Shown here: in pieces, positions 1 to 45,930 of the stretch
Numbering within the stretch: position 1 is the stretch's first letter
How the letters are laid out: every line of letters begins with the position of its first letter
IMG/VR virus record: IMGVR_UViG_3300050190_000017
Strand: one strand, 5' to 3'
DNA length: 64,000 nucleotides
Origin: a virus
Taxonomy: Duplodnaviria > Heunggongvirae > Uroviricota > Caudoviricetes
Notes under the pieces: model-generated
Seen by the model: the letters and a program-made list of their open reading frames with translations, nothing else
Databases searched by the model: none
Told to the model about the DNA's origin: nothing
Program-made: the position numbers and the translations under genes

Positions 1-447
1 CTGTCGATTATCTCGGGTCAACTGACGCCGTATACGTTTGCCCAAGTTATGGTGAACGTGTCGCAGTGGGGCCTGAAAACGCCGCACGTGTTGATGGCAA
101 CCGATCTGTACATCGACATTATCGGTAACTCGGAATTCTACCACGCAATCGACCCGGTTGCTCGTCACGAGTTGCTGTTGACTGGTGAACTCGGTGTGAT
201 CTATGGGTGTACCGTTACGTCGGACGCATATCGTCACCCAGAACACAAGGTGCTAAACCAAGGTGAATTCTTCGTTATCTCGGATGCACTGAACCATGGT
301 GCTTACTCGGATCGCGGTGGTATTTCGTCGGAGCCGATTAGCGCAGGTGTTGAGAAGGTCAGCGGTCGTGGCTGGATCATCCAAGAGTCGATCGCTGTGG
401 CAGTTGCAAACAGTCGCTCGGTTGCTAAGGGCTACAGAATCGCCTGA
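1..447 (+). CDS. Probable major capsid protein, C-terminal part (5'-truncated by window)
   Basis: Frame is open from base 1. DPV...ELLxTGELGxIYG-type segment and terminal E-S-I-A-V-A-V-A-N-S-R-S-V-A-K-G strand resemble HK97-fold capsid C-termini; lies at the start of a structural cluster. Confidence 0.6.
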   Translation: MSIISGQLTPYTFAQVMVNVSQWGLKTPHVLMATDLYIDIIGNSEFYHAIDPVARHELLLTGELGVIYGCTVTSDAYRHPEHKVLNQGEFFVISDALNHGAYSDRGGISSEPISAGVEKVSGRGWIIQESIAVAVANSRSVAKGYRIA

Positions 448-2153: not shown

Positions 2154-4091
2154 ATGACAATTAGTGCAGACCAAAGTTCAGCAGTGCTGGTCCAGGAAAT
2201 TAATTTGTCACAGGTAATCGTCTCTGCATCTACCTCTGTAGTTGCTCAGGTTATTGTGGCGAACCAAGGGCCTGTTGTACCAACCTTAATTACTAACACA
2301 CAGTCTTATCTAAACCAGTACGGTAATCCGAATGCGCAGGTGTCATTCGACGTTTATTGCGGACTGGATTACTTTAGTCAGGGTTCCCAACTATGGGGTC
2401 TTCGAGTAGTAGATCCCAGTGCGATGTACGCTGCGGTTCTTATGTGGACGGACGGTATGGAAACGTACCTAACCCAGATCACTGGAGGTGTAGCTGATCC
2501 TACCCAGCCTGATTGGATGGCGTTACTTCCTACTGGTACTGGTAACGAGGCAATTGCTTTGTTCTACCCAGCACTAGGCCCAGGACAGTACGGTGATAAC
2601 ACTGCGATTTCCATTACCTCTAACAATATTAACCCACCCACGGGACTAGCTGCTACTTCGTCTACTACTGGTGGTATGTTGGCGGCTTCAACGTATTCCT
2701 ACCAGGTGTCTGCTATTTCTGGTGCAGGTGGAACGCTGGCCACTAACATTGTTACTGTGGTTATTGCAGCAGGGACAACAACCAACGAGGTAACGTTGAC
2801 CTGGAACCCAGTTATTGGGGCTACTGGTTACAATGTGTACGGACGTGTTGCAGGTACCATTGGACTGTTGGCTACTGTAGGTGCGGCTACTACGACGTTC
2901 ACTGATACTGGTGCAGTAATGGCTAGTACCACCGTGTTCCCGATCACCAGTCCTGCTAAATTACCTCCAGCTAATCCTTTCTTCTCAGTTAATGTGTTTA
3001 ACACTGCACAGTCTAGCACGTATGCAGTTGAGAACTTCAATTGTTCTCTAACGGATATGACAGACCCGACTGGGATGGAAGCAGAGTTGGAGCAGCGAAT
3101 TAATCCGTTCTCCCAATGGATTCAGGTTACATCGAATGTACCGGCGTTGCTAACTGTTCCTACGGTAGAGACAGTGCCTATTATGAATATGGCAGGGGGT
3201 AACAACGGGTCACTCCCTACATCGTATGAGGTTGCAGCGGGTTGGGCTACGTTTAGTAACAAGCAGTTGTACCCAATCAATATCTTGTTGAACTCAGGTC
3301 ACAGTGATCCGACGGTCCAACGGGCTATGGATTCGTTGGCTCAGTCGCGTGGGGATTCCGTGTCCTTGCTCGATGTACCTAGTGCAAGTCAGGCTTTCCA
3401 ATCGGCTATTGATTACCGTAACCTGCAGTTGAATCTGAACTCCACGTATAGCGCGTTGTTTAGTCCCGATATGTTGGAGGCGGATACCATTAACGGTAAG
3501 CAACAATATGTACCGTTTAGTGGTTGGGCGGCTGCACTGTGTGCTCGTACCGATCGAGTGGCTAACCCTAGTTACAGTATCGCAGGTTTGAATCGTGGTA
3601 TTGTGAACGTGCTGGGTACACGCTATACGTATGACGCGGGTGAGATGAACTCGTTGTTCCAAGCGCAGGTTAACTATACTCAAACCTTCGTTGGTTCGGG
3701 TACTGCGCTGTGGGAACAACAGACGTTGAGTACTGAGTTCTCCGCATTGTCGTGGGTGTCGGTGCGGCGTATTGTGAACGTGTTGAAGACGTCACTGTAC
3801 TCGTTCTTGTTATACTCACTGCAAGAGCCCAATGACCAGTTCTTAGGGAACCAGATTGTAGGTAGCTGTAGCGCCTACCTTTTGGCACTTCAAAATGCGA
3901 GAGCAATCTCTAGTTTCGATGTGGTGTCGGATAGTAGTAATAATACGGCCCAGGATCTTAACAGCGGGATTAGGAACGTGACCGTAATTATTATCCCTAC
4001 CATACCGACGCATATTATCCAGTTGACGGTAGCCATCAGCCAGCAGGGTGTCAGTTTCGCAGAAACTTTAGCCCAGGTCGCCCCGTCCTGA
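2154..4091 (+). CDS. Contractile tail sheath protein with inserted FN3-like domain
   Basis: AGGAG RBS; sheath motifs (PSYSIAGLNRG, ALWEQQTL, SWVSVRRIVNVLK, EPND, VVSDSSNNT); VTLTWNPVIGATGYNVYGR FN3-like insert. Confidence 0.92.
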   Translation: MTISADQSSAVLVQEINLSQVIVSASTSVVAQVIVANQGPVVPTLITNTQSYLNQYGNPNAQVSFDVYCGLDYFSQGSQLWGLRVVDPSAMYAAVLMWTDGMETYLTQITGGVADPTQPDWMALLPTGTGNEAIALFYPALGPGQYGDNTAISITSNNINPPTGLAATSSTTGGMLAASTYSYQVSAISGAGGTLATNIVTVVIAAGTTTNEVTLTWNPVIGATGYNVYGRVAGTIGLLATVGAATTTFTDTGAVMASTTVFPITSPAKLPPANPFFSVNVFNTAQSSTYAVENFNCSLTDMTDPTGMEAELEQRINPFSQWIQVTSNVPALLTVPTVETVPIMNMAGGNNGSLPTSYEVAAGWATFSNKQLYPINILLNSGHSDPTVQRAMDSLAQSRGDSVSLLDVPSASQAFQSAIDYRNLQLNLNSTYSALFSPDMLEADTINGKQQYVPFSGWAAALCARTDRVANPSYSIAGLNRGIVNVLGTRYTYDAGEMNSLFQAQVNYTQTFVGSGTALWEQQTLSTEFSALSWVSVRRIVNVLKTSLYSFLLYSLQEPNDQFLGNQIVGSCSAYLLALQNARAISSFDVVSDSSNNTAQDLNSGIRNVTVIIIPTIPTHIIQLTVAISQQGVSFAETLAQVAPS

Positions 4092-4151: not shown

Positions 4152-5012
4152 ATGTTCAAATTAAACGCAGCATCACGATTGTTAGCCTCCAGTGGGACTA
4201 GAGTTAAAGCCTCAGACATAGACGAGCACCAAGAGGAAGATGAGGTGGCAGTTAAAGACTTCCTTGAAACCAATCCAGTAACTGCTGCAGATACCCTAAG
4301 CTCTAGGGACGAGCGAGACACCTCAAGTGGTATGTTTGCCGCCGAAGAGTTAGGTGACGGCTATGCAAATCCTCCACGTACAAGCACTAGAGAATCAGGT
4401 ACTGCGTTCCCTATGGCTAAGCTGTTGGCTTCCCGGCTTCGGGCGGCAATTGAGAAGCACGGGGCTATGGGTGATAACTCGGTTTCCACGGATCCACTAC
4501 TCCAGGGTGTCGAGGATTCTAACCCCAGAGCAGTAGAGGCGGACTCCACTACGGACAATCCGTTCGATATGTTTGAGTCGAGCATACCCTCTATTGACAT
4601 TAACCTAGAGGACCAGCCGGATGTAGTGAGAGGTGCTAAGAGAAAGCCTGCTACTAAAAAGAAGCCAGCAGCTAAACGTAAGTCTAAGCCTAAAGCAATG
4701 CTAGACCGCTTGTTAGATGAGCAGTCTATCATGTATCAGAATGAGGCTTCGGTTGTGGAAGCAGACTCCACTGTGGACGTGGACTCCCCTCCTGGGTCGA
4801 CCTATGTTAAGTTCCCGGTCTCGCGTGATGAGGACGAGAACTACCTGGCGGCTACGTTCGATACGGGTTGTGAAAGTCATGAGATGCTAGGTGAACCTTC
4901 TGAAGAGGGCGAGGTTCAAATCCTTAGTGATGCAGACGAGGAACCTGAGGAGGTACTGGGTGATGCTGACGCCTTACATCTGTGGAACGTAGCCAATCAG
5001 CCTCTTAGCTAA
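4152..5012 (+). CDS. Acidic putative head-internal/core protein with MFKLNAASRL N-terminus
   Basis: AGGAG RBS; shared N-terminal peptide; acidic with a KRKPATKKKPAAKRK basic patch. Confidence 0.6.
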   Translation: MFKLNAASRLLASSGTRVKASDIDEHQEEDEVAVKDFLETNPVTAADTLSSRDERDTSSGMFAAEELGDGYANPPRTSTRESGTAFPMAKLLASRLRAAIEKHGAMGDNSVSTDPLLQGVEDSNPRAVEADSTTDNPFDMFESSIPSIDINLEDQPDVVRGAKRKPATKKKPAAKRKSKPKAMLDRLLDEQSIMYQNEASVVEADSTVDVDSPPGSTYVKFPVSRDEDENYLAATFDTGCESHEMLGEPSEEGEVQILSDADEEPEEVLGDADALHLWNVANQPLS

Positions 5013-5017
5013 CAATC

Positions 5018-5026
5018 AATTTCATA
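5018..5026 (+). promoter_or_regulatory. Candidate late promoter AATTTCATA
   Basis: Same 9-mer recurs about 20-40 nt upstream of several structural/lysis genes. Confidence 0.5.
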
Positions 5027-5047
5027 TTAAATAACTAGGAGTTAATT

Positions 5048-5554
5048 ATGGCTAGAACTTCTTTAGCTAACGTGCAGTCTATTGCTGATCCGGCGACAAG
5101 CTGGGAGTACGACCTCTTTTTGCCTGCCATCCCAGGCTCAGCTGATACTCGACAGCTTACCTATCGCTGCCAGTCTACTGCTTTGCCAGGTGCTGCTATG
5201 GACCCTGTGACTGTAGCCTTGCACGGTGTGGAACTTCGATACGCAGGTCGTGCTATTTATACGCACACCTTTGAATCAGTGTTCATGGAAGGTTCGGACT
5301 ACCTAACCCGTACCTCCTTCATTAACTGGCGTGAGAGTGCCCGTTCATGGGTGAACAATAGTGGAACGTTGGCTTCCGCTTATAAGGTGAACGGCCAGAT
5401 CGTGGTTTACAACTCGATCCCTAACGTAGTGAAGACTGTTAACGTCTATGGTATGTGGCCGGAAACAATTGCAGACTACGCAATGGACGGTACCGCATCG
5501 AATCTTGTTACCCTGTCTATTACGTGGAACTATGACTACCTTGTAGATGCATAG
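5048..5554 (+). CDS. Tail tube protein
   Basis: AGGAG RBS; 168 aa; CQSTALPG, YAGR, GMWP and LSITWNYDY segments typical of T4 gp19-like tubes; follows the sheath. Confidence 0.85.
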   Translation: MARTSLANVQSIADPATSWEYDLFLPAIPGSADTRQLTYRCQSTALPGAAMDPVTVALHGVELRYAGRAIYTHTFESVFMEGSDYLTRTSFINWRESARSWVNNSGTLASAYKVNGQIVVYNSIPNVVKTVNVYGMWPETIADYAMDGTASNLVTLSITWNYDYLVDA

Positions 5555-5570
5555 ACCCTAGGAGTTTAGA

Positions 5571-6179
5571 ATGATTAAGCTCCAAGCTGCCTCTAGGTTA
5601 TTGGCTAACTGGTGGGATGCCCTAGATGAGGACCAGAAAGAAGAATACATTGAGGAGCATCCCGATAGCAAATACGCTATGGGCTACGACGGAGAGGATG
5701 ACGATACATCCAAGCATAAGCCCAAGAAACTAAAGGATGGCCTTAAACCTCCGCCCAAGACTCTGAAAACTCCGAAGGCCCTTCTGGAAGGCCCGAGCGG
5801 TGAAGACGAGGACTCAGACGATACAACAAAGCCTAAACCAAAGAAGAATCCAGACGAGGAGAAGAGTCTAACTAAGTATCTCCTTCATAAGGGTGGGGAC
5901 GCAGCTAAGAAGAAGGCCAAGGAGCTGGTGAAGAAGGGAGGCCATGAAGTTATTCGTCGCCTACTTGATCCCCTGGAGCTTACTGACATAGGCAAGAAGG
6001 GCGAGCTACCAGAGCTACCCTTCAAATTTAAGTCTAAGGAAGGTAAGATTAAGGATCTCCAAGGAAAGCGTACTAAGCTGCGGAAGGAGATGAAGGGGTA
6101 CGGAAAGAATGTACCCCAGAAGCTCAAAGATCAGATGAAAGAATTGTCCGATAAGCTAGAAGGGCTTCAGGAGGACTAA
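5571..6179 (+). CDS. Lys/Asp/Glu-rich putative head-internal protein (MIKLQAASRL)
   Basis: Shared N-terminal peptide followed by WWDALDEDQKEEYIEEHPDSKY module. Confidence 0.6.
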   Translation: MIKLQAASRLLANWWDALDEDQKEEYIEEHPDSKYAMGYDGEDDDTSKHKPKKLKDGLKPPPKTLKTPKALLEGPSGEDEDSDDTTKPKPKKNPDEEKSLTKYLLHKGGDAAKKKAKELVKKGGHEVIRRLLDPLELTDIGKKGELPELPFKFKSKEGKIKDLQGKRTKLRKEMKGYGKNVPQKLKDQMKELSDKLEGLQED

Positions 6180-6261
6180 GGTACGATTCAGTACTGTAGT
6201 GATTCTAAACATTCATTAGCTGGCAGAACTGTACCATTACCAAAAAATTAAAGGATTAGAA

Positions 6262-6480
6262 ATGAAGATTCAACTTAACGCAGCAGCCCGACTTACAGAA
6301 GTTACTGCAGCGGAACATTCTGACACTGAGATAAAGCAGCTTCAGAACAAAATCGCCACTACTAAGCAACTGATCAGTATGGGTAGAGGTGGAGTAGCAG
6401 CTAGAGACGGACTACAGAAACTACAAGAAAAGATGAAAAAGATGCGAGAAGACAATCGTAAGGCCAAGAAGACTAAGTAA
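6262..6480 (+). CDS. Small basic putative head-internal protein (MKIQLNAAARL)
   Basis: AAGGA RBS; shared N-terminal peptide; Lys-rich helical body. Confidence 0.6.
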   Translation: MKIQLNAAARLTEVTAAEHSDTEIKQLQNKIATTKQLISMGRGGVAARDGLQKLQEKMKKMREDNRKAKKTK

Positions 6481-6563
6481 CCGCCGTACCGACCCGTAGA
6501 GGTTCACTACTGTTTCACACTTTCTTTCACAACAAAGTTGCTGCACAACTAAGGATATAAATC

Positions 6564-7322
6564 ATGAACAGCATTATGGACTACGCAAAGACTGTAAGCA
6601 TTACCGACTTCCGGATGAAGAGCGAGACGCTGGCTAAGGTGATGATCTCGTTCACTGGTAAGCAGACAAAGGAAGACATTCGTGCGGCTCTCCAACATAA
6701 GTTCAACAACCTGGCTGCTCCCGTTGAAGATAGCTTCCGTATCGTCAAAGCTGGTGTAGCTGTTGGGTTCGTTCGTTCTAACAAGGAAGTGCGGGTTGTC
6801 TCTGATAAAGAGTTGCGGGCATCCTATAAGGTAATGTCGTCCAACATTATGATGGATGATGCAGACAAGTCGCTGTGGGAAATTCGTGAGGGCAAGGCTG
6901 GTAAGTTCCTTGCACGTCATGGTCACGAGGACCTGTCGGAATTGGTTAATGCTTCGGTGCATCGCCGGTCGGACATTCCTGCATTGCGTAGCCTTCAGAT
7001 CGCTAAGGCTGCTTCAGGTGAGTTCGTCTCGTTTGTCTCGAAGTCGGGTGACATGGATCACGGTTTCGTAGTGGCTTCTAACGATAAGCAAGTTAAGGTG
7101 GTGTCGTCTACTACCCAAACTGCTGCCGTTGTTGATTATGATATGGTGACGGTTATCTCGCAGGTACCAATCCCCAAATCGTTTAGTCGTGCTATGGTGA
7201 AGGCTAACATTAGCCGTGCGGACCAGACCCAGGCCATTGAGTACTGGTCGAAGTTGTACAGCTATGCTCCGGATTATTTAGAAGAAATTCGGCGCCAGGT
7301 GGAAGAAGGCACGACTGCGTAA
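6564..7322 (+). CDS. Hypothetical protein, probably virion-associated
   Basis: AAGGA RBS; 252 aa ORF inside the structural cluster; no family recognised. Confidence 0.6.
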   Translation: MNSIMDYAKTVSITDFRMKSETLAKVMISFTGKQTKEDIRAALQHKFNNLAAPVEDSFRIVKAGVAVGFVRSNKEVRVVSDKELRASYKVMSSNIMMDDADKSLWEIREGKAGKFLARHGHEDLSELVNASVHRRSDIPALRSLQIAKAASGEFVSFVSKSGDMDHGFVVASNDKQVKVVSSTTQTAAVVDYDMVTVISQVPIPKSFSRAMVKANISRADQTQAIEYWSKLYSYAPDYLEEIRRQVEEGTTA

Positions 7323-7340
7323 TCAACTAGGGCTACTAAT

Positions 7341-7691
7341 ATGAAGATTCAACTTAACGCAGCAGCGCGGCTGATGGAAACTACGGAAGTAGTCGCAGCC
7401 CCATCCTGGTTCACTTCTCTCAATCCGGAGATGCAAAGAGAGTACCTTAAGCGTCATCCCGACTCGAAGCTTGCTAAGGACGCCGGAAAACCAGCACCTA
7501 AACCAAAAAACCCAGCAAAGCCGAAGGTATCTAAGGCCCCTGCTGATCGCAAGACTACAGTGCAGCAACGTATCAAGAAGATTCAAACACGGCTCAAGCA
7601 GCTGACACGGGATCCAGAAGCGGATGAAGTAGAAGTTTCTGAGCTTGAGCAGGATCTCCGCAAGTACAAAGAGGATCTCACAAAACTGTAA
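7341..7691 (+). CDS. Basic putative head-internal protein (MKIQLNAAARL)
   Basis: Shared N-terminal peptide plus WFTSLNPEMQREYLKRHPDSKL module and coiled-coil tail. Confidence 0.6.
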   Translation: MKIQLNAAARLMETTEVVAAPSWFTSLNPEMQREYLKRHPDSKLAKDAGKPAPKPKNPAKPKVSKAPADRKTTVQQRIKKIQTRLKQLTRDPEADEVEVSELEQDLRKYKEDLTKL

Positions 7692-7709
7692 CTAACCGGG
7701 TAACCAAAT

Positions 7710-7741
7710 AGCCCCATTGAAAATTATACTTCAATGGGGCT
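7710..7741 (+). terminator. 12-bp hairpin immediately upstream of the oxidoreductase operon
   Basis: AGCCCCATTGAA-aattatac-TTCAATGGGGCT followed by CTTCTATTT. Confidence 0.55.
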
Positions 7742-7753
7742 CTTCTATTTACT

Positions 7754-8236
7754 ATGAAAATTACACTGAATATAAACGAGCAACGGTACTCTGGTGATCT
7801 TGAACCCAGGGTAACGCTGCTCGATGCAATCCGTGAACGTGCCGGGTTGATGGGAACAAAGAAAGGCTGCGACAGAGGACAGTGTGGAGCATGTACTGTA
7901 CTGGTTGACGGTCGGCGTATCAACTCCTGTTTAACGTTAGCCGTTATGCACGACGGTCAAGAGATCACTACTGTAGAGGGACTTGCTGAAGGTGACAAAC
8001 TCAGCGATCTTCAACAAGCCTTCCTCGACTACGATGCTTTCCAATGCGGCTACTGTACCCCAGGTCAACTGTGTTCAGCTTCAGCATTGCTAAATGAATT
8101 AGACCGTGGGGAACTGAGTGCTGTCTCAGGTGCCTCACTGGATGACGAGATCAAAGAGCGTATGAGCGGCAACCTCTGTCGCTGTGGAGCATATCCCAAT
8201 ATCGTTAAGGCGATCAAAGCAGTATCGGAGACCTAG
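7754..8236 (+). CDS. yagT: Xanthine dehydrogenase family / aldehyde oxidoreductase 2x[2Fe-2S] subunit (PaoA/YagT-like, no Tat leader)
   Basis: GTKKGCDRGQCGACTV...SC and QCGYCTPG...GNLCRCG: both [2Fe-2S] cysteine sets intact. Confidence 0.95.
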   Translation: MKITLNINEQRYSGDLEPRVTLLDAIRERAGLMGTKKGCDRGQCGACTVLVDGRRINSCLTLAVMHDGQEITTVEGLAEGDKLSDLQQAFLDYDAFQCGYCTPGQLCSASALLNELDRGELSAVSGASLDDEIKERMSGNLCRCGAYPNIVKAIKAVSET

Positions 8237-9211
8237 ATGGAAAACTTCTCCTACATTCGAGCCACAGATATTCAAAGCGCACTGAGTGCTAACGGTACAT
8301 TCATTGCAGGAGGCACTAACCTCCTGGACTTGATGAAGGGCTGCGTAGAACATCCGTCCGGCCTTGTTGACATTACTCACGTACCAGGACTAGACAAGAT
8401 TGAGGAGCTCCCTAACGGTGGGTTCCGTATTGGGGCAACAGTTCGCAATAGCGATGCCGCCAACCATCCGGTAGTCCGTACTAAGTATTCCCTATTAAGC
8501 CAGGCTATTCTATCGGGTGCATCCGCTCAGTTGCGTAACATGGCAACCACTGGTGGTAACTTGATGCAGCGTACTCGTTGTGGTTACTTCTACGATACGA
8601 TGTTTAGCGAATGCAACAAGCGCGAACCCGGTAGTGGCTGTGCTGCTATTAATGGTGCTAGTCGCAACATGGCTATCTTTGGTTCTAGCCCTCAGTGTAT
8701 TGCCACCAACCCATCTGATATGAGTGTAGCATTAGCTGCGCTAGATGCAGTTGTGCAGGTGGTAGGGCCTAAAGGCAAACGCAGTATTCCAATCACTGAC
8801 TTCCATCGTCTCCCTGAGGATACCCCCGAGATTGATACCGTTCTACAGCAAGGAGAGCTCATAGTCTCCGTAGACCTCCCGCCCCATGAGTTCACACACG
8901 TTCACTATTTGAAAGTCCGAGATCGTCATAGCTTTGCATTCGCTGTGGTCTCTGTTGCAGTAGCGTTAAAGATGGAAGGTAATGTAGTGCAAGATATTAG
9001 GATCGCTTTAGGTGGTGTTGCGTTAAAGCCGTGGAGAGCGTCAATAGCAGAGAAGCTGTTGATTGGTAAGGAGCTAACTTCAGACGCGCTAAAGGAAGCA
9101 TCCGTAGCTGAACTACTGAAAGCAAAGCCTGCTAGGGATAACCGATTCAAAGTAAGGTTAGCACAACGTTCCATCGTGCGCGCCATTAACACAGCTAGAG
9201 GTGTACAGTGA
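8237..9211 (+). CDS. yagS: Aldehyde oxidoreductase FAD-binding subunit (PaoB/YagS-like) with [4Fe-4S] insert
   Basis: [53 protein letters not shown] (four Cys), [21 protein letters not shown]. Confidence 0.95.
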   Translation: [324 protein letters not shown]

Positions 9212-11400
9212 TTATCGGCCAACCAATAAATCGTACTGATGGGGTACTAAAGGTCACAGGTGCGGCTCCCTATGCTGCTGACTTCAAGGTCCCTGGCTTG
9301 GTACACGCGGTAATGGTAACCTCTACTATTGCTAGTGGTACAGTTAAGATTGATGCAGAAGAAGTCGAGAAGATGTTAGGCGTACTCCTCGTATTGACTC
9401 ACGCTAACGCACCTAAGCTACCGAAGATTGAGGAAGTAGTGTTACCTGCTACCCGTATGTTGTCCCTATGTCAGGACGATAAGGTGCACTACAGCAATCA
9501 ACCTATCGCAGTTGTGGTCGCCACTACCCTAGAGCGGGCAACTGAAGCTGCTAACAAACTTAGTATTACTTATACTGAGGAAGAAGCTGTACTCGAATTT
9601 GATAGTGCAGACGGGTACACTCCTCCACCCCAACTTGATGTGCCACCCGATACTAAACGTGGTGACTTCGAGGAAGGGTTTGAGGAAAGTGATGTACAGA
9701 TAGATGAAGTGTACACCACACCCATCGAGAATCACAATCCGATCGAGACGTTGGCTACCTTAGCCCAGTGGGACGGACAGAAGTTAGTTCTGCACGATAC
9801 CACTCAAGGGGTGCATGATGCGAAGAAGGCGATCGCTAAGGCCCTCGGTATAGAGGCCTCGGACGTGCGTGAACTATCTCCGTACCTTGGGGGTGGTTTC
9901 GGCTGCAAGGGTTCAACGTGGTCGCACGTTATTCTATGTGCTACAGTTGCGAAGATGTTGGACAAGCCTGTACGCTTAGTGGTGACTCGCCCTCAGATGT
10001 TTGGCCCTGTCGGATATAGACCGAATACTGAGCAGCACGTTAAGCTAGGGGCTACCAAAGACGGCGTGCTTACTGCAATGTCCCACACTAGCTACTCTAC
10101 CACCTCTATGCTAGAGGATTGGACTGAGACGTGCTGTGAGATCTCCCGCATTCTCTATGATGTACCCAATCAAGTAACTGCTCACCGATTAGTAAAGCTT
10201 AACATCGGCAATCCAACGTTCATGCGAGCACCTGGGGCAATCACGGGATCATTCGCACTGGAATCAGCTATGGATGAATTGTCGTATGCCCTAAAGATGT
10301 GTCCAGTAGAGCTTAGGCTTAAGAACTACGCAGAGAAGGATCCTGATAGTGGCAACCCTTGGTCTAGTAAGTTTCTCAATGAATGCTACTCCATAGGGGC
10401 ATCAAAGTTCGGATGGGATAAACGGCAGCCGAAGCCTAGGACTCTGCGTGAGGGCCGTAAGCTGATCGGTATGGGTATGGCAACAGCTACCTATCCTGGT
10501 AATCGAGGTGATGCCTCAGCTAAGGTGATCATACGTACAGACGGTACTGCAGTTGTGGGATCTGGTACTCATGACTTAGGAACCGGTACCTACACTGTTA
10601 TGACTCAGGTTGCTGCACAGGCGTTGGGCTTCACTGTGGACAACGTGACATTTTTATTAGGTGACTCTGCACTGCCTAAGTCTCCCGATGCTAGTGGATC
10701 TAAGTCTGCTGCCTCTATTAGCCCTGCTGTTTATTCTGCATGTGCGAAGGCCCGACAGAAGCTTATTGCCTTGGCAGTTAAGGATAAGAAGTCTCCTGTG
10801 TATGGCAAATCTGAGGTAGTAATCGAGAACGGGTGGATTATCAGTAAGGAGTCCCCAGTTCGACGTGACTCAGTTAAGGCCGTAATGGGGAGATCAGGCA
10901 CACCTATCGAAGCATCGGCCAATGCGAATACAGGTGATGAACGAGACGAGTATTCCTTCCATTCATTCGGTGCAGTCTTCGTAGAAGCTCATGTCGATGC
11001 AGATCTGGGGACCATCTGTATTCCACGGGTTGTAGCCGTCTATGATGTAGGTCGTATATTAAACCAGAAGACTGCTCACTCCCAGATGATGGGCGGCATA
11101 ACATGGGGCATTGGTGCCGCACTGGAAGAAGAGACTATATTCGATACCAACTGTGGGCACTTCGTTAATGCTAATCTAGCTGACTACCATGTGCCGGTTA
11201 ACTTGGATATAGGTGATCTCGATATAACGTTTCTAAACAAGCCCGATCCCCATATTAGTTCGATGGGTGTTCGTGGTGTCGGTGAGATCGGTATCACTGG
11301 CATAGTAGCAGCCATTGCTAACGCGGTTTACAATGCTACTGGTGTACGAGTTCGTGATCTTCCGATTACGATGGACAAAATTATACTCCCTAAGGAATAG
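9208..11400 (+). CDS. yagR: Aldehyde oxidoreductase molybdopterin-binding subunit (PaoC/YagR-like)
   Basis: DGVLKVTGAAPYAAD, HNPIE, GGGFGCKG, MRAPG, DLGTGTYT, GVGEIG (catalytic Glu), NAVYNATGVRVRDLPIT; GTGA overlap with the FAD subunit. Confidence 0.95.
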   Translation: MIIGQPINRTDGVLKVTGAAPYAADFKVPGLVHAVMVTSTIASGTVKIDAEEVEKMLGVLLVLTHANAPKLPKIEEVVLPATRMLSLCQDDKVHYSNQPIAVVVATTLERATEAANKLSITYTEEEAVLEFDSADGYTPPPQLDVPPDTKRGDFEEGFEESDVQIDEVYTTPIENHNPIETLATLAQWDGQKLVLHDTTQGVHDAKKAIAKALGIEASDVRELSPYLGGGFGCKGSTWSHVILCATVAKMLDKPVRLVVTRPQMFGPVGYRPNTEQHVKLGATKDGVLTAMSHTSYSTTSMLEDWTETCCEISRILYDVPNQVTAHRLVKLNIGNPTFMRAPGAITGSFALESAMDELSYALKMCPVELRLKNYAEKDPDSGNPWSSKFLNECYSIGASKFGWDKRQPKPRTLREGRKLIGMGMATATYPGNRGDASAKVIIRTDGTAVVGSGTHDLGTGTYTVMTQVAAQALGFTVDNVTFLLGDSALPKSPDASGSKSAASISPAVYSACAKARQKLIALAVKDKKSPVYGKSEVVIENGWIISKESPVRRDSVKAVMGRSGTPIEASANANTGDERDEYSFHSFGAVFVEAHVDADLGTICIPRVVAVYDVGRILNQKTAHSQMMGGITWGIGAALEEETIFDTNCGHFVNANLADYHVPVNLDIGDLDITFLNKPDPHISSMGVRGVGEIGITGIVAAIANAVYNATGVRVRDLPITMDKIILPKE

Positions 11401-11405
11401 CCCAA

Positions 11406-11897
11406 ATGAAAATTCAACTCAATGCCGCAGCCCGTTTGGTAGAGTCAGGCTTTGAAGACTGGCCTAAAGAACGTCAACAGAAGTACCTCAAAGAGCATCC
11501 TGGTAGTAAGTATGGTAAGGGTGGAGGTAAGGCTGCTCCGGTAAAGACAGTGCCTACAAAACCTGCACCAATAAAGCCTACGCCAGCCGCCAGCTTCAGT
11601 GGCGATTTAGGTAAGAAGCACAAGATCGACTTAGGGGAATACGTAGTCCGGGATGGTGAACGTTCTGGCGAGGGGTACACCGATCAGAAAGCCGTGGACT
11701 CAATGTCTAAAGATTTAATTAAACAAGGCTTTGAGCAAGAGGACTGGGGGTCCGACGGAACGCACTACAGCAAGGGAGATCATTCTGTAACGATCAAGAA
11801 AACGTCCGACGGAGACTATAGGGTTACGACGTTTGAACCTGCACCGAAGAAGCCTCTGAAGCGGTCGAAGGTCCGTCCGTCTAGCCTGTACGACTGA
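11406..11897 (+). CDS. Putative head-internal protein (MKIQLNAAARL)
   Basis: RBS AAGGA lies in the last codons of the Mo subunit gene; shared N-peptide plus FEDWPKERQQKYLKEHPGSKY module. Confidence 0.6.
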   Translation: MKIQLNAAARLVESGFEDWPKERQQKYLKEHPGSKYGKGGGKAAPVKTVPTKPAPIKPTPAASFSGDLGKKHKIDLGEYVVRDGERSGEGYTDQKAVDSMSKDLIKQGFEQEDWGSDGTHYSKGDHSVTIKKTSDGDYRVTTFEPAPKKPLKRSKVRPSSLYD

Positions 11898-11952
11898 TCT
11901 GTTATCCTTGACTACCTTGTAGTCCTAGCCTCATTGACCCCGTTAGAACTCA

Positions 11953-12687
11953 ATGAGGTTCCTAATGAACTACCTACCAGTTCCCGCTAGATACGCTCTG
12001 GGTATTACCCAGTCCTCCCTACCGTCTGTAGTAGACTTGAGGCCGAAGTGTAGCCCCATAGCCAATCAGGGTGATATGAGTAGCTGTGTTGCCTTTGCCG
12101 TTATCAGTGCAATGGAGTACCTAGAAAACGTACAGCACAACTCTACGATCTCTCTGTCTCAGCAGTTTGTGTACTACAATGAACGAGTCCTAAACGGCTC
12201 TGTAGCTTCAGATGACGGGGCCTTCGTAGAGGATGGAATAAACGTCCTTCTGACCTACGGGGCCTGTGAGCTATCCTTGTGGCCGTATTCAAAGGATGAC
12301 CTCTACACCAAGCCCTCAGATGCTGCCTACGCCGATGCAACTAAACGTAAGGCGTTAAAGTATTCGCGTGTAGCCCAGGATCAAACCTCTGTGATGACCC
12401 CCCTGTCTAATGGCTATCCAGTAGTATTAGGGTTCCTTGTGTACCCCGCGTTTGAATCGCAAGAGGTAGCGGCCTCTGGTATTGTGCCTATGCCGAACTC
12501 TACGGAGGAAATGCTAGGTGGCCATTGCGTGTGTATAGTAGGCTACGACTTGGCGAAGCAGATGTTTCTAATCCGTAACAGCTGGGGACCTGATTGGGGG
12601 ATCAATGGTTACTGCTGGATGCCGTTTGCCTACGTACTGAGTCCTAGCTTGGCTCATGGGATGTACGCCATTGAGAGCGTATCCTAA
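11953..12687 (+). CDS. Papain-like cysteine peptidase (C1 family)
   Basis: VDLR...NQGDMSSCVAFA (oxyanion Gln and catalytic Cys), GGHCVCIVGY (His), IRNSWG (Asn). Confidence 0.92.
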   Translation: MRFLMNYLPVPARYALGITQSSLPSVVDLRPKCSPIANQGDMSSCVAFAVISAMEYLENVQHNSTISLSQQFVYYNERVLNGSVASDDGAFVEDGINVLLTYGACELSLWPYSKDDLYTKPSDAAYADATKRKALKYSRVAQDQTSVMTPLSNGYPVVLGFLVYPAFESQEVAASGIVPMPNSTEEMLGGHCVCIVGYDLAKQMFLIRNSWGPDWGINGYCWMPFAYVLSPSLAHGMYAIESVS

Positions 12688-12694
12688 TTTCATA
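12686..12694 (+). promoter_or_regulatory. Candidate late promoter AATTTCATA
   Basis: Recurrent 9-mer, about 20 nt before the ATG at 12715. Confidence 0.5.
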
Positions 12695-12714
12695 ACATAT
12701 TTTAAGGATTTCTA

Positions 12715-13113
12715 ATGAAGGTCAAACTACACGCAGCATCACGACTTAGGGCAGCTGTTGATAGCCAAGCACTAGATGAGTTCACCGATCTCATTAAATG
12801 TTTGGATTCTGTGAAGTGGCAGAAGCTAGAAGACAAAGGCTTCTTCGATAACATGGAAGAGTGCTGCGTGCAGTTCGATCAGGATAGCTACGAAGCACTA
12901 TACAAGAGGTTGCAGGCAGAAGGCTACGTTGAAGTAGCAGAGGTGGATGTGTCGTCTATTGAATGTCTCAAGACCTGCCCTAGTGGTATTGTTCTAGGGT
13001 ATGGTTCAGGGCAGCGCTGTCCTCTTGTATGTTGTGTAGATGACGATCACTCGTATCTGTACATGCCGACTTCTACGGACGACGTACAACAGTTTATTCA
13101 AACCTTAGGATGA
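12715..13113 (+). CDS. Acidic Cys-rich putative head-internal protein (MKVKLHAASRL)
   Basis: AAGGA RBS; variant N-peptide; 8 Cys in 132 aa. Confidence 0.6.
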   Translation: MKVKLHAASRLRAAVDSQALDEFTDLIKCLDSVKWQKLEDKGFFDNMEECCVQFDQDSYEALYKRLQAEGYVEVAEVDVSSIECLKTCPSGIVLGYGSGQRCPLVCCVDDDHSYLYMPTSTDDVQQFIQTLG

Positions 13114-13118
13114 CTGAA

Positions 13119-13355
13119 ATGAAAATCAAGTTGAATGCAGCAGCACGGTTGTTAGCCGCCGAGGGTGAAGCACAGAAAGATCCCGCAGAGGAATCTTTGA
13201 AGAGGCGTTTGGAAATTCAGAAGGAGAAGCCAACTGAAGATCAAAGCTTTGGGGACAAGAAGTCTATCTTGGATACGCAGGAACAACTAGAACGTACCAA
13301 AGAGCAAGTGAAGCGTAAGAAGGAAGGCGGTAAACCAGAAGGCGGAAAAGAGTAA
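13119..13355 (+). CDS. Small charged putative head-internal protein (MKIKLNAAARL)
   Basis: Start moved to ATG 13119 to match the shared N-peptide; K/E-rich body. Confidence 0.6.
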   Translation: MKIKLNAAARLLAAEGEAQKDPAEESLKRRLEIQKEKPTEDQSFGDKKSILDTQEQLERTKEQVKRKKEGGKPEGGKE

Positions 13356-45642: not shown

Positions 45643-45930
45643 ATGAAAAAGATACGAAGTACACTAAAGATAACAGCAGAAGATTATTCGTTCAATACGG
45701 TAGCACCTAATCACAACCTAGATGAACCTTACTTGCCAACTGGTGTAGACTTGGAGCCCGAAGTGCATCCTAAATCAGAGATCCTATTGAATGCTACCAA
45801 TTTCAAGTTAAATGCAGCACACCGATTGGTAGTTACGTTGAAGAAGGAGGCTTCTATAATGCCCTCGAATCAAGCCGGAGATCACGACACCCATATCTCC
45901 AGTGTAGAACAAGAAGATGAAGAAGAATAA
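45643..45930 (+). CDS. Hypothetical protein with internal FKLNAAHRL motif
   Basis: ORF track; acidic C-terminus. Confidence 0.5.
   Translation: MKKIRSTLKITAEDYSFNTVAPNHNLDEPYLPTGVDLEPEVHPKSEILLNATNFKLNAAHRLVVTLKKEASIMPSNQAGDHDTHISSVEQEDEEE

Follow-up and report, generated by a model that had tools for sequence, protein, structure and literature searches.

The window analysed here, by which we mean the whole 64,000-nucleotide stretch of IMG/VR virus record IMGVR_UViG_3300050190_000017, belongs, judging by its sequence, to a jumbo myophage related to Ralstonia phage phiRSL1 and Burkholderia phage BcepSauron. It opens inside the major capsid protein gene, of which the 3' end is present (1..447, + strand), and continues with the tail sheath gene (2154..4091, +) and the tail tube gene (5048..5554, +; PF23849 Phage_TTP_2). 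Replication genes on the minus strand, tail-fibre genes and lysis genes follow further along. The sheath protein shares 66% amino-acid identity with that of phiRSL1, 63% with those of BcepSauron and BcepSaruman, and less with those of BCSR5 and Achromobacter phage Motura. A megablast search of the region against phage records gave no match, i.e. there is no near-identical phage record. Next to the sheath and tube genes, seven open reading frames (ORFs) with mostly different bodies start with almost the same peptide of about 11 amino acids (aa). This N-terminal tag, its occurrence in related phages and its possible role as a capsid-targeting signal are the subject of this report.

Tagged genes of the phage

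The seven ORFs all lie on the plus strand, and their coordinates and starting peptides, first reported in a first-pass annotation of the window, were verified in the ORF listing and by direct reading. ORF 1 (4152..5012, 286 aa), flanked by the tail sheath gene on one side and the tail tube gene on the other, encodes an acidic protein (isoelectric point (pI) 4.4) with a basic KRK patch; its tag MFKLNAASRLLA, at 4152-4187, starts with MFKLNAASRL. ORF 2 (5571..6179, 202 aa, highly charged) has the tag MIKLQAASRLLA, with MIKLQAASRL at the start. Three ORFs begin with the identical peptide MKIQLNAAARL, namely ORF 3 (6262..6480, 72 aa, basic, pI 10.3), where it is followed by TE, ORF 4 (7341..7691, 116 aa, basic), where it is followed by ME, and ORF 5 (11406..11897, 163 aa, basic), where it is followed by VE. 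ORF 6 (12715..13113, 132 aa), with the tag MKVKLHAASRL, is acidic and Cys-rich and has no family match. ORF 7 (13119..13355, 78 aa, K- and E-rich) has the tag MKIKLNAAARLLAAE, starting with MKIKLNAAARL. For this last gene the reported start needs a qualification, because an earlier in-frame ATG is present at 13110, though the spacing to the ribosome binding site (RBS) favours 13119.

The seven starts follow the common pattern M-x(1-2)-[KQ]-L-[NQH]-A-A-[AS]-R-L. The core AA[AS]RL occurs seven times in the six-frame translation of the whole window, and all seven matches are these N-termini; mononucleotide shuffles of the window contain 0.64 matches on average and two at most. For the longer pattern L-x-A-A-[AS]-R-L, seven six-frame matches in the window stand against a shuffle mean of 0.02.

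Conservation of the tag is at the protein level. The DNA segments encoding the three identical MKIQLNAAARL peptides differ from each other at three to seven nucleotides, and every one of these differences is synonymous. The identical tags use four codons for Leu (CTT, CTC, CTG, TTG), three for Arg (CGA, CGG, CGT) and three for Ala (GCA, GCC, GCG). On the 5' side of the ATG, nucleotide conservation is confined to an AGGA-like RBS. Since the codons vary synonymously and the upstream DNA has only the RBS in common, selection acts on the peptide and not on a DNA cassette. A repeated cassette, consisting of promoter or RBS together with the start region, is thereby ruled out as the origin of the similarity.

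Downstream of the tag, the proteins have little in common. In BLASTP comparisons (E 1e-3), the similarity between them covers the first 17 residues or is absent, with the exception of ORFs 2, 4 and 5, so that the original description of the bodies as mostly different holds. It had also called the proteins highly charged, and we find pI values of 4.4 or 8.8-10.3 and 25-46% charged residues. The suggested tag length of about 11 aa agrees with a conserved core from the initial Met to R-L, to which a preferred Ala at the third position after the Arg should be added. Pfam and PHROGs searches with the seven proteins returned nothing above noise and assigned no family, and a search of the ESM Atlas for look-alikes of two of them gave nothing usable.

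ORFs 2, 4 and 5 share a second module, W..L...Q+.YL+.HP.SKY, which extends to about residue 45-60 according to BLASTP. It follows the tag in ORF 2 (as W..L...Q+.Y...HP.SKY) and in ORF 4 (HP.SK), and in ORF 5 it is present as HP.SKY and followed by a distinct C-terminal body. The module (5571-5700, 7341-7500 and 11406-11530 in the window; the initial W may be followed by F) is repeated several times within BcepSauron gp075 (L002:16998-18728), and a module of HP.SKY type is also present in a large protein whose gene follows that of the tail tube in many relatives; the module matches no Pfam family. Residues 1-39 of ORF 2 are 49% identical to the N-terminus of the same gp075. A database search with residues 1-40 of ORF 5 retrieved four metagenomic relatives only, which keep tag and module and have different linkers and C-terminal bodies.

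ORF 1 has positional counterparts that are tagged in BcepSauron (gp077), BCSR5 and the uncultivated IMG/VR relative G001. In phiRSL1, ORF141 shares the C-terminal LWN[MV]ANQP motif with ORF 1; it is devoid of an N-terminal tag, and contains two internal copies of the tag motif.

The region upstream of the window was accessible from Logan contig L007, which overlaps the window with 100% identity and reaches 9.5 kb further upstream. Its genes encode, in this order, an SNF2 helicase, two small conserved proteins, an eighth tagged protein, the prohead protease, a 540-aa SprT-like protein, a 523-aa scaffold-like protein, a 225-aa virion protein and the capsid protein. The eighth tagged gene (L007:3580-3873, 98 aa), directly before the prohead protease gene and 5.9 kb upstream of the start of the window, begins with MRIQLNAAARLVEV, and its product has only the first 17 residues in common with ORF 3. 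A weak tag-like start, SLGASKRLQEAL, is found in the 540-aa SprT-like protein. Window and upstream contig together, 73.5 kb in total, were scanned for tags of this phage; a longer contig of 218,861 bp is attested by one protein cluster. A 95-aa ORF downstream of the tail-fibre genes (45643..45930, +), without a family match, contains an internal degenerate tag-like segment, NFKLNAAHRLVVT, at residues ~53-65; this assignment is of low confidence.

The tag in related phages

The scan for the motif in this genome and in its relatives, which the first-pass annotation had proposed, yields eight copies in the phage itself and about 80 in the clade, which we refer to as the phiRSL1/BcepSauron clade. 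It covered the complete phiRSL1 and BcepSauron genomes, the 230-kb genome of G001, and 43 IMG/VR loci that were found via an alignment of the prohead protease. All five cultured phages of this relationship that were checked, namely phiRSL1, BcepSauron, BCSR5, Motura and BcepSaruman (identical matches), carry the tag. Its bearers include the products of phiRSL1 ORF109, 111, 112, 120, 124, 126, 127 and 133, and gp075, gp077, gp091, gp093, gp099 and gp276 of BcepSauron. The tag is held constant across phages whose proteases are only 50-70% identical. In Dickeya phage AD1, with a protease that is ~36% identical, no such tag was found in the head and tail module. The tag therefore appears to be specific to the phiRSL1/BcepSauron clade.

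From the 43 loci and the contig bearing the window, 79 unique N-terminal tags were compiled. When they are anchored on the Arg (position 0), position -7 is Met or hydrophobic, -6 is Lys in 43 tags, -5 is Leu or Ile in 70, and -4 is Asn, Gln or Glu in 56. At -2, Ala (44) and Lys (21) prevail, Ala is found at +3 in 58 tags, and +4 is Thr, Ala, Ser or Asp. Ala at -3, Arg at 0 and Leu at +1 occur in 79 of 79 tags, at sites that were constrained by the collecting pattern, which required the Arg and the Leu and permitted no residue other than Ala or Ser at -3. What the pattern did not impose, and hence counts as an independent signal, is the conservation at -6, -5, -4 and +3. The resulting clade consensus is K-L-[NQE]-A-[AK]-x-R-L-x-A, with the Arg at index 7-9 from the Met in 74 of the 79 tags.

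After removal of duplicates, 87 N-terminal motif matches are on the strand of the head genes, compared to 19 on the other strand. With respect to the protease gene, the tagged genes cluster in three regions, at 7-10 kb upstream of it (28 genes), immediately downstream (14) and at 6-10 kb downstream, near the sheath and tube genes (29). Tags of phiRSL1 are one residue longer (A-A-V-x-R-L). In this phage (L001 / NC_010811) several gene starts are apparently mis-set, and the tag points to likelier ones for ORF111 (MKYSVKGAVERL), ORF126 (MYDIKAAVNRL) and ORF133 (MYEIKAAVDRL).

The tag is portable between unrelated bodies. Among 70 tagged proteins searched against Pfam, six belong to a family, and all six families are different: homospermidine synthase (saccharopine dehydrogenase domains), NUDIX, SprT-like, GNAT, RNase T exonuclease and DUF3175. 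Tagged NUDIX hydrolases are encoded by phiRSL1 (ORF109), G001 and BcepSauron (gp099). Homospermidine synthase provides a natural pair with and without the tag, since it is tagged in G001 (start MKVQIHAAQRLLED; L019:14163-15608, - strand) and untagged in phiRSL1, where ORF110 encodes a functional enzyme (PMC9992855). The carriers also vary between relatives. The tagged genes flanking the protease gene of the phage itself, for the 98-aa protein and the 540-aa SprT-like protein, have no homologue in three complete relatives, while counterparts with 38-75% identity exist there for the protease, the scaffold-like protein and the capsid protein. In being hypervariable next to conserved head genes, the tagged genes resemble those of the T4 internal proteins, which have diverse bodies and only the targeting sequence conserved (PMC3012670).

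Prohead protease and candidate cleavage sites

The protease encoded next to the eighth tagged gene matches phrog_18299, 'head maturation protease' (E 6e-90). No PDB chain was matched in a sequence search, so its likeness to T4 gp21 comes from the fold search only. An AlphaFold model, built from an alignment of 27 sequences (mean predicted local distance difference test score 73), has T4 gp21 (5jbl) as its best match, with a Foldseek probability of 0.98 and, in VIA-align, a Z-score of 9.8 and a root-mean-square deviation of 3.0 A over 139 of 165 residues. Herpesvirus proteases come next, with Z ~6. According to the model, the head module thus encodes a prohead protease of gp21 type, with assemblin fold. 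A gene for an SprT-like metalloprotease domain protein (PF10263; L007:4713-6335) directly follows the protease gene; in Motura, such a gene (L094:3504-4883) is a few kb upstream of it. In both phages the SprT-like proteins begin with MQC..C..., and not with a clean tag.

T4 gp21, phiKZ gp175 and SPN3US gp245 all cut after Glu (PMC9026906). Among the eight tags of the phage, five have R-L-x-E at residues 10-13 (L-x-E at 11-13), and the other three have I-D-E, L-D-E or A-A-E; [LIA]-x-E is found within 25 residues in 8/8. In the whole clade, [AGS]-x-E is enriched 2.4-fold and [LIAGS]-x-E 2-fold in the nine residues after the tag.

Capsid protein and scaffold-like protein

The N-terminus of the capsid protein is kept across the clade (L007:8833-8900; capsid genes of L049-L089) and reads K-V-x-V-R-A-[AS]-K-T-P-x-V-A-[AS]-[ST]-[ED]-[YF]. 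Its first half is tag-like, and it ends with a motif of A-x-E type (a conserved A-S-E at residues 17-19), which could be a maturation cut site. The segment was considered as a further instance of the tag and rejected, because it has phi-x-A-A-K in common with the tags and lacks the invariant R-L; we take the similarity as a resemblance only.

We call the acidic 523-aa protein (L007:6470-8038) scaffold-like because of its gene position, its composition and acidity, and the long helices of its model. The first 230 residues are predicted to be disordered, followed by a small sheet and the long helices. Foldseek and VIA-align searches with this model gave long-helix or noise matches only; Foldseek rows to leader-peptide-binding domains of ribosomally synthesized and post-translationally modified peptide (RiPP) systems are very weak (probability <0.1). 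The N-terminal half is very acidic, with repeated G-G-S-T-H-F-x-N-E-E motifs. S-T-H-F-P is also present in phiRSL1 ORF125, where a tag-like segment follows. PHROGs and RefSeq label the family as 'ATPase', which is probably wrong.

The scaffold-like protein contains an RRMNAAVDEE segment and has a conserved C-tail, T-V-[HQT]-A-A-L-x-R-P, in which T-V-[HQT]-A-A-L is modelled as a short helix; there is no R-L as in the tags. The phi-x-A-A likeness of the capsid N-arm and the scaffold C-tail to the tag is a lead about a binding partner, and should not be taken as evidence. Complex prediction with a 30-residue tag alignment and the scaffold-like core (residues 240-523), the capsid protein and the protease gave a score of 0.00 in a run without controls, and thus speaks neither for nor against binding.

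Discussion

The capsid targeting sequence (CTS) of the T4 internal proteins IPI, IPII and IPIII, reportedly described by Mullaney and Black in 1996, reads MKTYQEFIAE. We estimate a probability of about 50% that the tag described here is an independently evolved capsid-targeting propeptide, analogous to this T4 sequence. It would then be a portable docking tag of phiRSL1/BcepSauron-like phages, probably in the form of a short, basic, amphipathic helix at a free N-terminus. During prohead assembly the helix would bind a component of the head core, and small charged proteins and enzymes, in a set that varies, would thereby end up inside the capsid. Subsequently, the gp21-type protease would cleave behind a Glu close by (in this phage mostly that of L-x-E at residues 11-13), and the released cargo would be ejected together with the DNA.

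The first-pass annotation had arrived at a similar interpretation. We find it partly supported. The peptide behaves as a portable tag, since it is the protein sequence that is conserved and the carriers are unrelated; in addition, it occurs in the late structural module of a phage with a gp21-fold protease, and five of the eight copies have L-x-E. The cleavage motif is not universal, however, and there are C-terminal and internal copies. As for independence from T4, we agree, as the tag has no sequence likeness to the T4 CTS except for the Met-Lys start. It is therefore to be seen as an analogue and an independent invention, and not as a member of the T4 group by descent.

Several observations weigh against capsid targeting, and most of them can also be cited for a different explanation, in which the tag docks to a shared partner outside the capsid interior. 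Candidates for this partner are assembly sites in the tail or baseplate and intracellular hubs, for instance chaperones, protease adaptors or components of the phage factory. All seven tagged genes of the window flank the tail sheath and tube genes, not head genes. A cleavage site after the tag is not universal: [LIAGS]-x-E is found within nine residues of the tag in only 26 of 78 tagged proteins, and 18 of 79 tags have no Glu in the ~20 residues displayed. A free N-terminus is not strictly required, since the motif is also found at C-termini, in BcepSauron gp093 and gp276 as well as in G001, L051 and L087. Among these, gp093, which adjoins the annotated portal or connector gene, ends with TITAAQRLAAGA, gp276 has the tag at both ends, and one G001 protein ends with MQLKAALRLTESAG. 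In phiRSL1 ORF125 and ORF141 the motif is internal. The C-terminal and internal copies suggest that the motif may be a docking helix of flexible position, and not a zip code confined strictly to the N-terminus. The carriers include metabolic enzymes (homospermidine synthase, NUDIX), and in the case of the polyamine-synthesis enzyme there is no evident reason for encapsidation. Finally, the literature searched contains no virion proteomics, mass spectrometry or N-terminal data for any member of the clade.

One of these objections is less severe than it appears, and the arguments for a partner elsewhere meet difficulties of their own. T4 Alt is processed at both ends and has a C-terminal propeptide (PMC9026906), so C-terminal copies of the motif can be reconciled with the T4 logic. 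Most of the loci that include the region just behind the prohead protease gene have a tagged gene there, and other tagged genes adjoin a gene annotated as portal or connector, which speaks against a partner outside the capsid interior. Payloads of extracellular contractile injection systems (eCIS), including the Photorhabdus virulence cassettes (PVC), are loaded into tubes with the help of N-terminal packaging signals. In myophages, however, the tail tube lumen is normally filled by the tape measure protein, and folded enzymes of 50 kDa would probably be too large for it. All considered, we regard docking outside the capsid interior as unlikely, but as an explanation that has to be kept in mind.

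It is also conceivable, and in our opinion clearly less probable still, that the motif serves mainly for recognition or cleavage by the prohead protease, which would trim the proteins, for example for activation or release, while targeting would depend on other parts of them. The gp21 fold of the protease and the frequent L-x-E or A-x-E after the tag are in line with this, as are the tag-like phi-x-A-A segments in two proteins that are expected to be processed, the scaffold-like protein and, at its N-terminus, the capsid protein. Yet the invariant R-L is missing from exactly these two segments, and C-terminal copies of the motif at a distance of three to five residues from the stop codon would make poor cleavage sites. 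The distinction from capsid targeting is moreover not sharp. In T4 IPIII, a single peptide of 10 residues contains the determinants of targeting (residues 4 and 7) and of processing (residues 8 and 10) (PMC9026906). Very improbable, in contrast, is that the shared start is a functionless remnant of duplication in one paralogous family, with bodies that changed more quickly than the 11 residues at the start. The common N-terminal module of 40-60 residues in three of the window proteins would fit such an origin, and many small tagged proteins of the relatives resemble each other downstream of the tag, where a helix is followed by G-[FW]. The homology of bodies expected for a single family is nevertheless absent from the BLASTP comparison outside these ~40-60 residues, the bodies include unrelated Pfam families, and orthologous homospermidine synthases exist both with and without the tag. 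Synonymous drift and the divergence of the proteases have left the tag constant.

Capsid targeting by a CTS analogue can be extended to a more specific and more tentative picture, which we hold to be possible rather than probable. According to it, phiRSL1, BcepSauron, BcepSaruman, BCSR5, Motura and dozens of uncultivated relatives would use one 11-residue tag, N-terminal and apparently also C-terminal, to bring an arsenal of exchangeable proteins into the virion, from which it would be delivered together with the DNA. As part of the same picture, and with the same reservation, the arsenal would comprise small DNA-binding-like proteins together with the NUDIX hydrolase, homospermidine synthase, SprT protease, GNAT and exonuclease. 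By imitating the phi-x-A-A helices of the capsid N-arm or scaffold C-tail, the tag may ride on the contact between scaffold and capsid.

Comparison with known systems

In T4, the N-terminal propeptides of the internal proteins are 10-19 residues long and target them to the core (PMC9026906, PMC3012670); together with the N-propeptides of gp24 and Alt, they are removed by the gp21 prohead protease (PMC3012670, PMC9026906). The similarities to the clade described here are considerable. In both cases a short N-terminal peptide (10-19 aa in T4, ~11-13 aa here) is the sole common part of diverse, often charged and fast-evolving proteins, and the gene for a gp21-fold protease is in the same head module. 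In the phage of the window the tag mostly ends with hydrophobic-x-Glu, and the T4 IPIII peptide with I-A-E. The differences concern first of all the sequence, since the basic, Ala-rich core with invariant R-L does not resemble the T4 peptide quoted above. There are also ~10-15 carriers per genome, enzymes among them, compared to a handful in T4. In the clade, many tags lack the cleavage motif, some relatives have C-terminal and internal copies, and encapsidation and cleavage are predictions.

In the phages phiKZ, 201phi2-1 and SPN3US, propeptides of head and inner-body proteins are cut by gp175/gp245 at S/A/G-x-E (PMC9026906, PMC5694885, PMC10052503). Like the phage studied here, these are jumbo myophages with a gp21-related protease. 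Many head-internal or ejection proteins of phiKZ, 201phi2-1 and SPN3US are processed after Glu, and A-x-E follows many tags of the present clade. According to the three papers, however, the propeptides of those phages are long and heterogeneous, and a single short shared tag is not described there. Beyond the protease fold, we detected no relationship between phiKZ-like phages and this clade.

Short terminal peptides that direct unrelated cargo into a shell of HK97 fold are also known from encapsulins, with their cargo-loading peptides, and from phage P1, where DarB has an N-terminal capsid-targeting region (PMC9024508, PMC12810830). The encapsulin peptides differ from the tag in that they usually sit at the C-terminus, attach to the shell protein itself and stay on the cargo, while DarB relies on the adaptor proteins DarA and Hdf. 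A further comparison, prompted by the position of the window's tagged genes beside those for sheath and tube, is possible with the payload signals of eCIS and PVC.

Those signals are disordered N-terminal leaders of ~50 aa, which mediate loading into the tail tube lumen of the contractile injection system. The tag is much shorter, and is also found on genes that adjoin the protease gene and the annotated portal or connector gene.

Should loading of cargo into the capsid be its function, the tag would represent a second, independently evolved capsid-targeting code with simple and conserved rules. The injected protein arsenal, ~10-15 genes per genome, could be read straight from genome sequences, and the odd N-terminal extension of NUDIX hydrolases and homospermidine synthase would be accounted for. 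A short handle would also become available to package reporter proteins into these phages, as with the T4 CTS. Members of the clade that infect Ralstonia, Burkholderia and Achromobacter can be cultured, which makes the idea directly testable. Should the tag dock elsewhere, it would mark an undescribed protein-interaction hub in a clade of jumbo phages, with genes that are almost all of unknown function.

Other genes among the tagged ORFs

The late operon of the window contains a complete set of three molybdoenzyme genes between tagged genes (7754-11400, +). They encode a 2Fe-2S subunit of 160 aa (Fer2/Fer2_2), an FAD-binding subunit of 324 aa (FAD_binding_5/CO_deh_flav_C) and a molybdopterin subunit of 730 aa (Ald_Xan_dh_C/MoCoBD). 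All three subunits are untagged, and such genes are absent from the matching place in phiRSL1 and BcepSauron. Also untagged, and likewise located among tagged genes, is a papain-family cysteine peptidase (11953-12687, +; PF00112, E 1e-20; phrog_16701).

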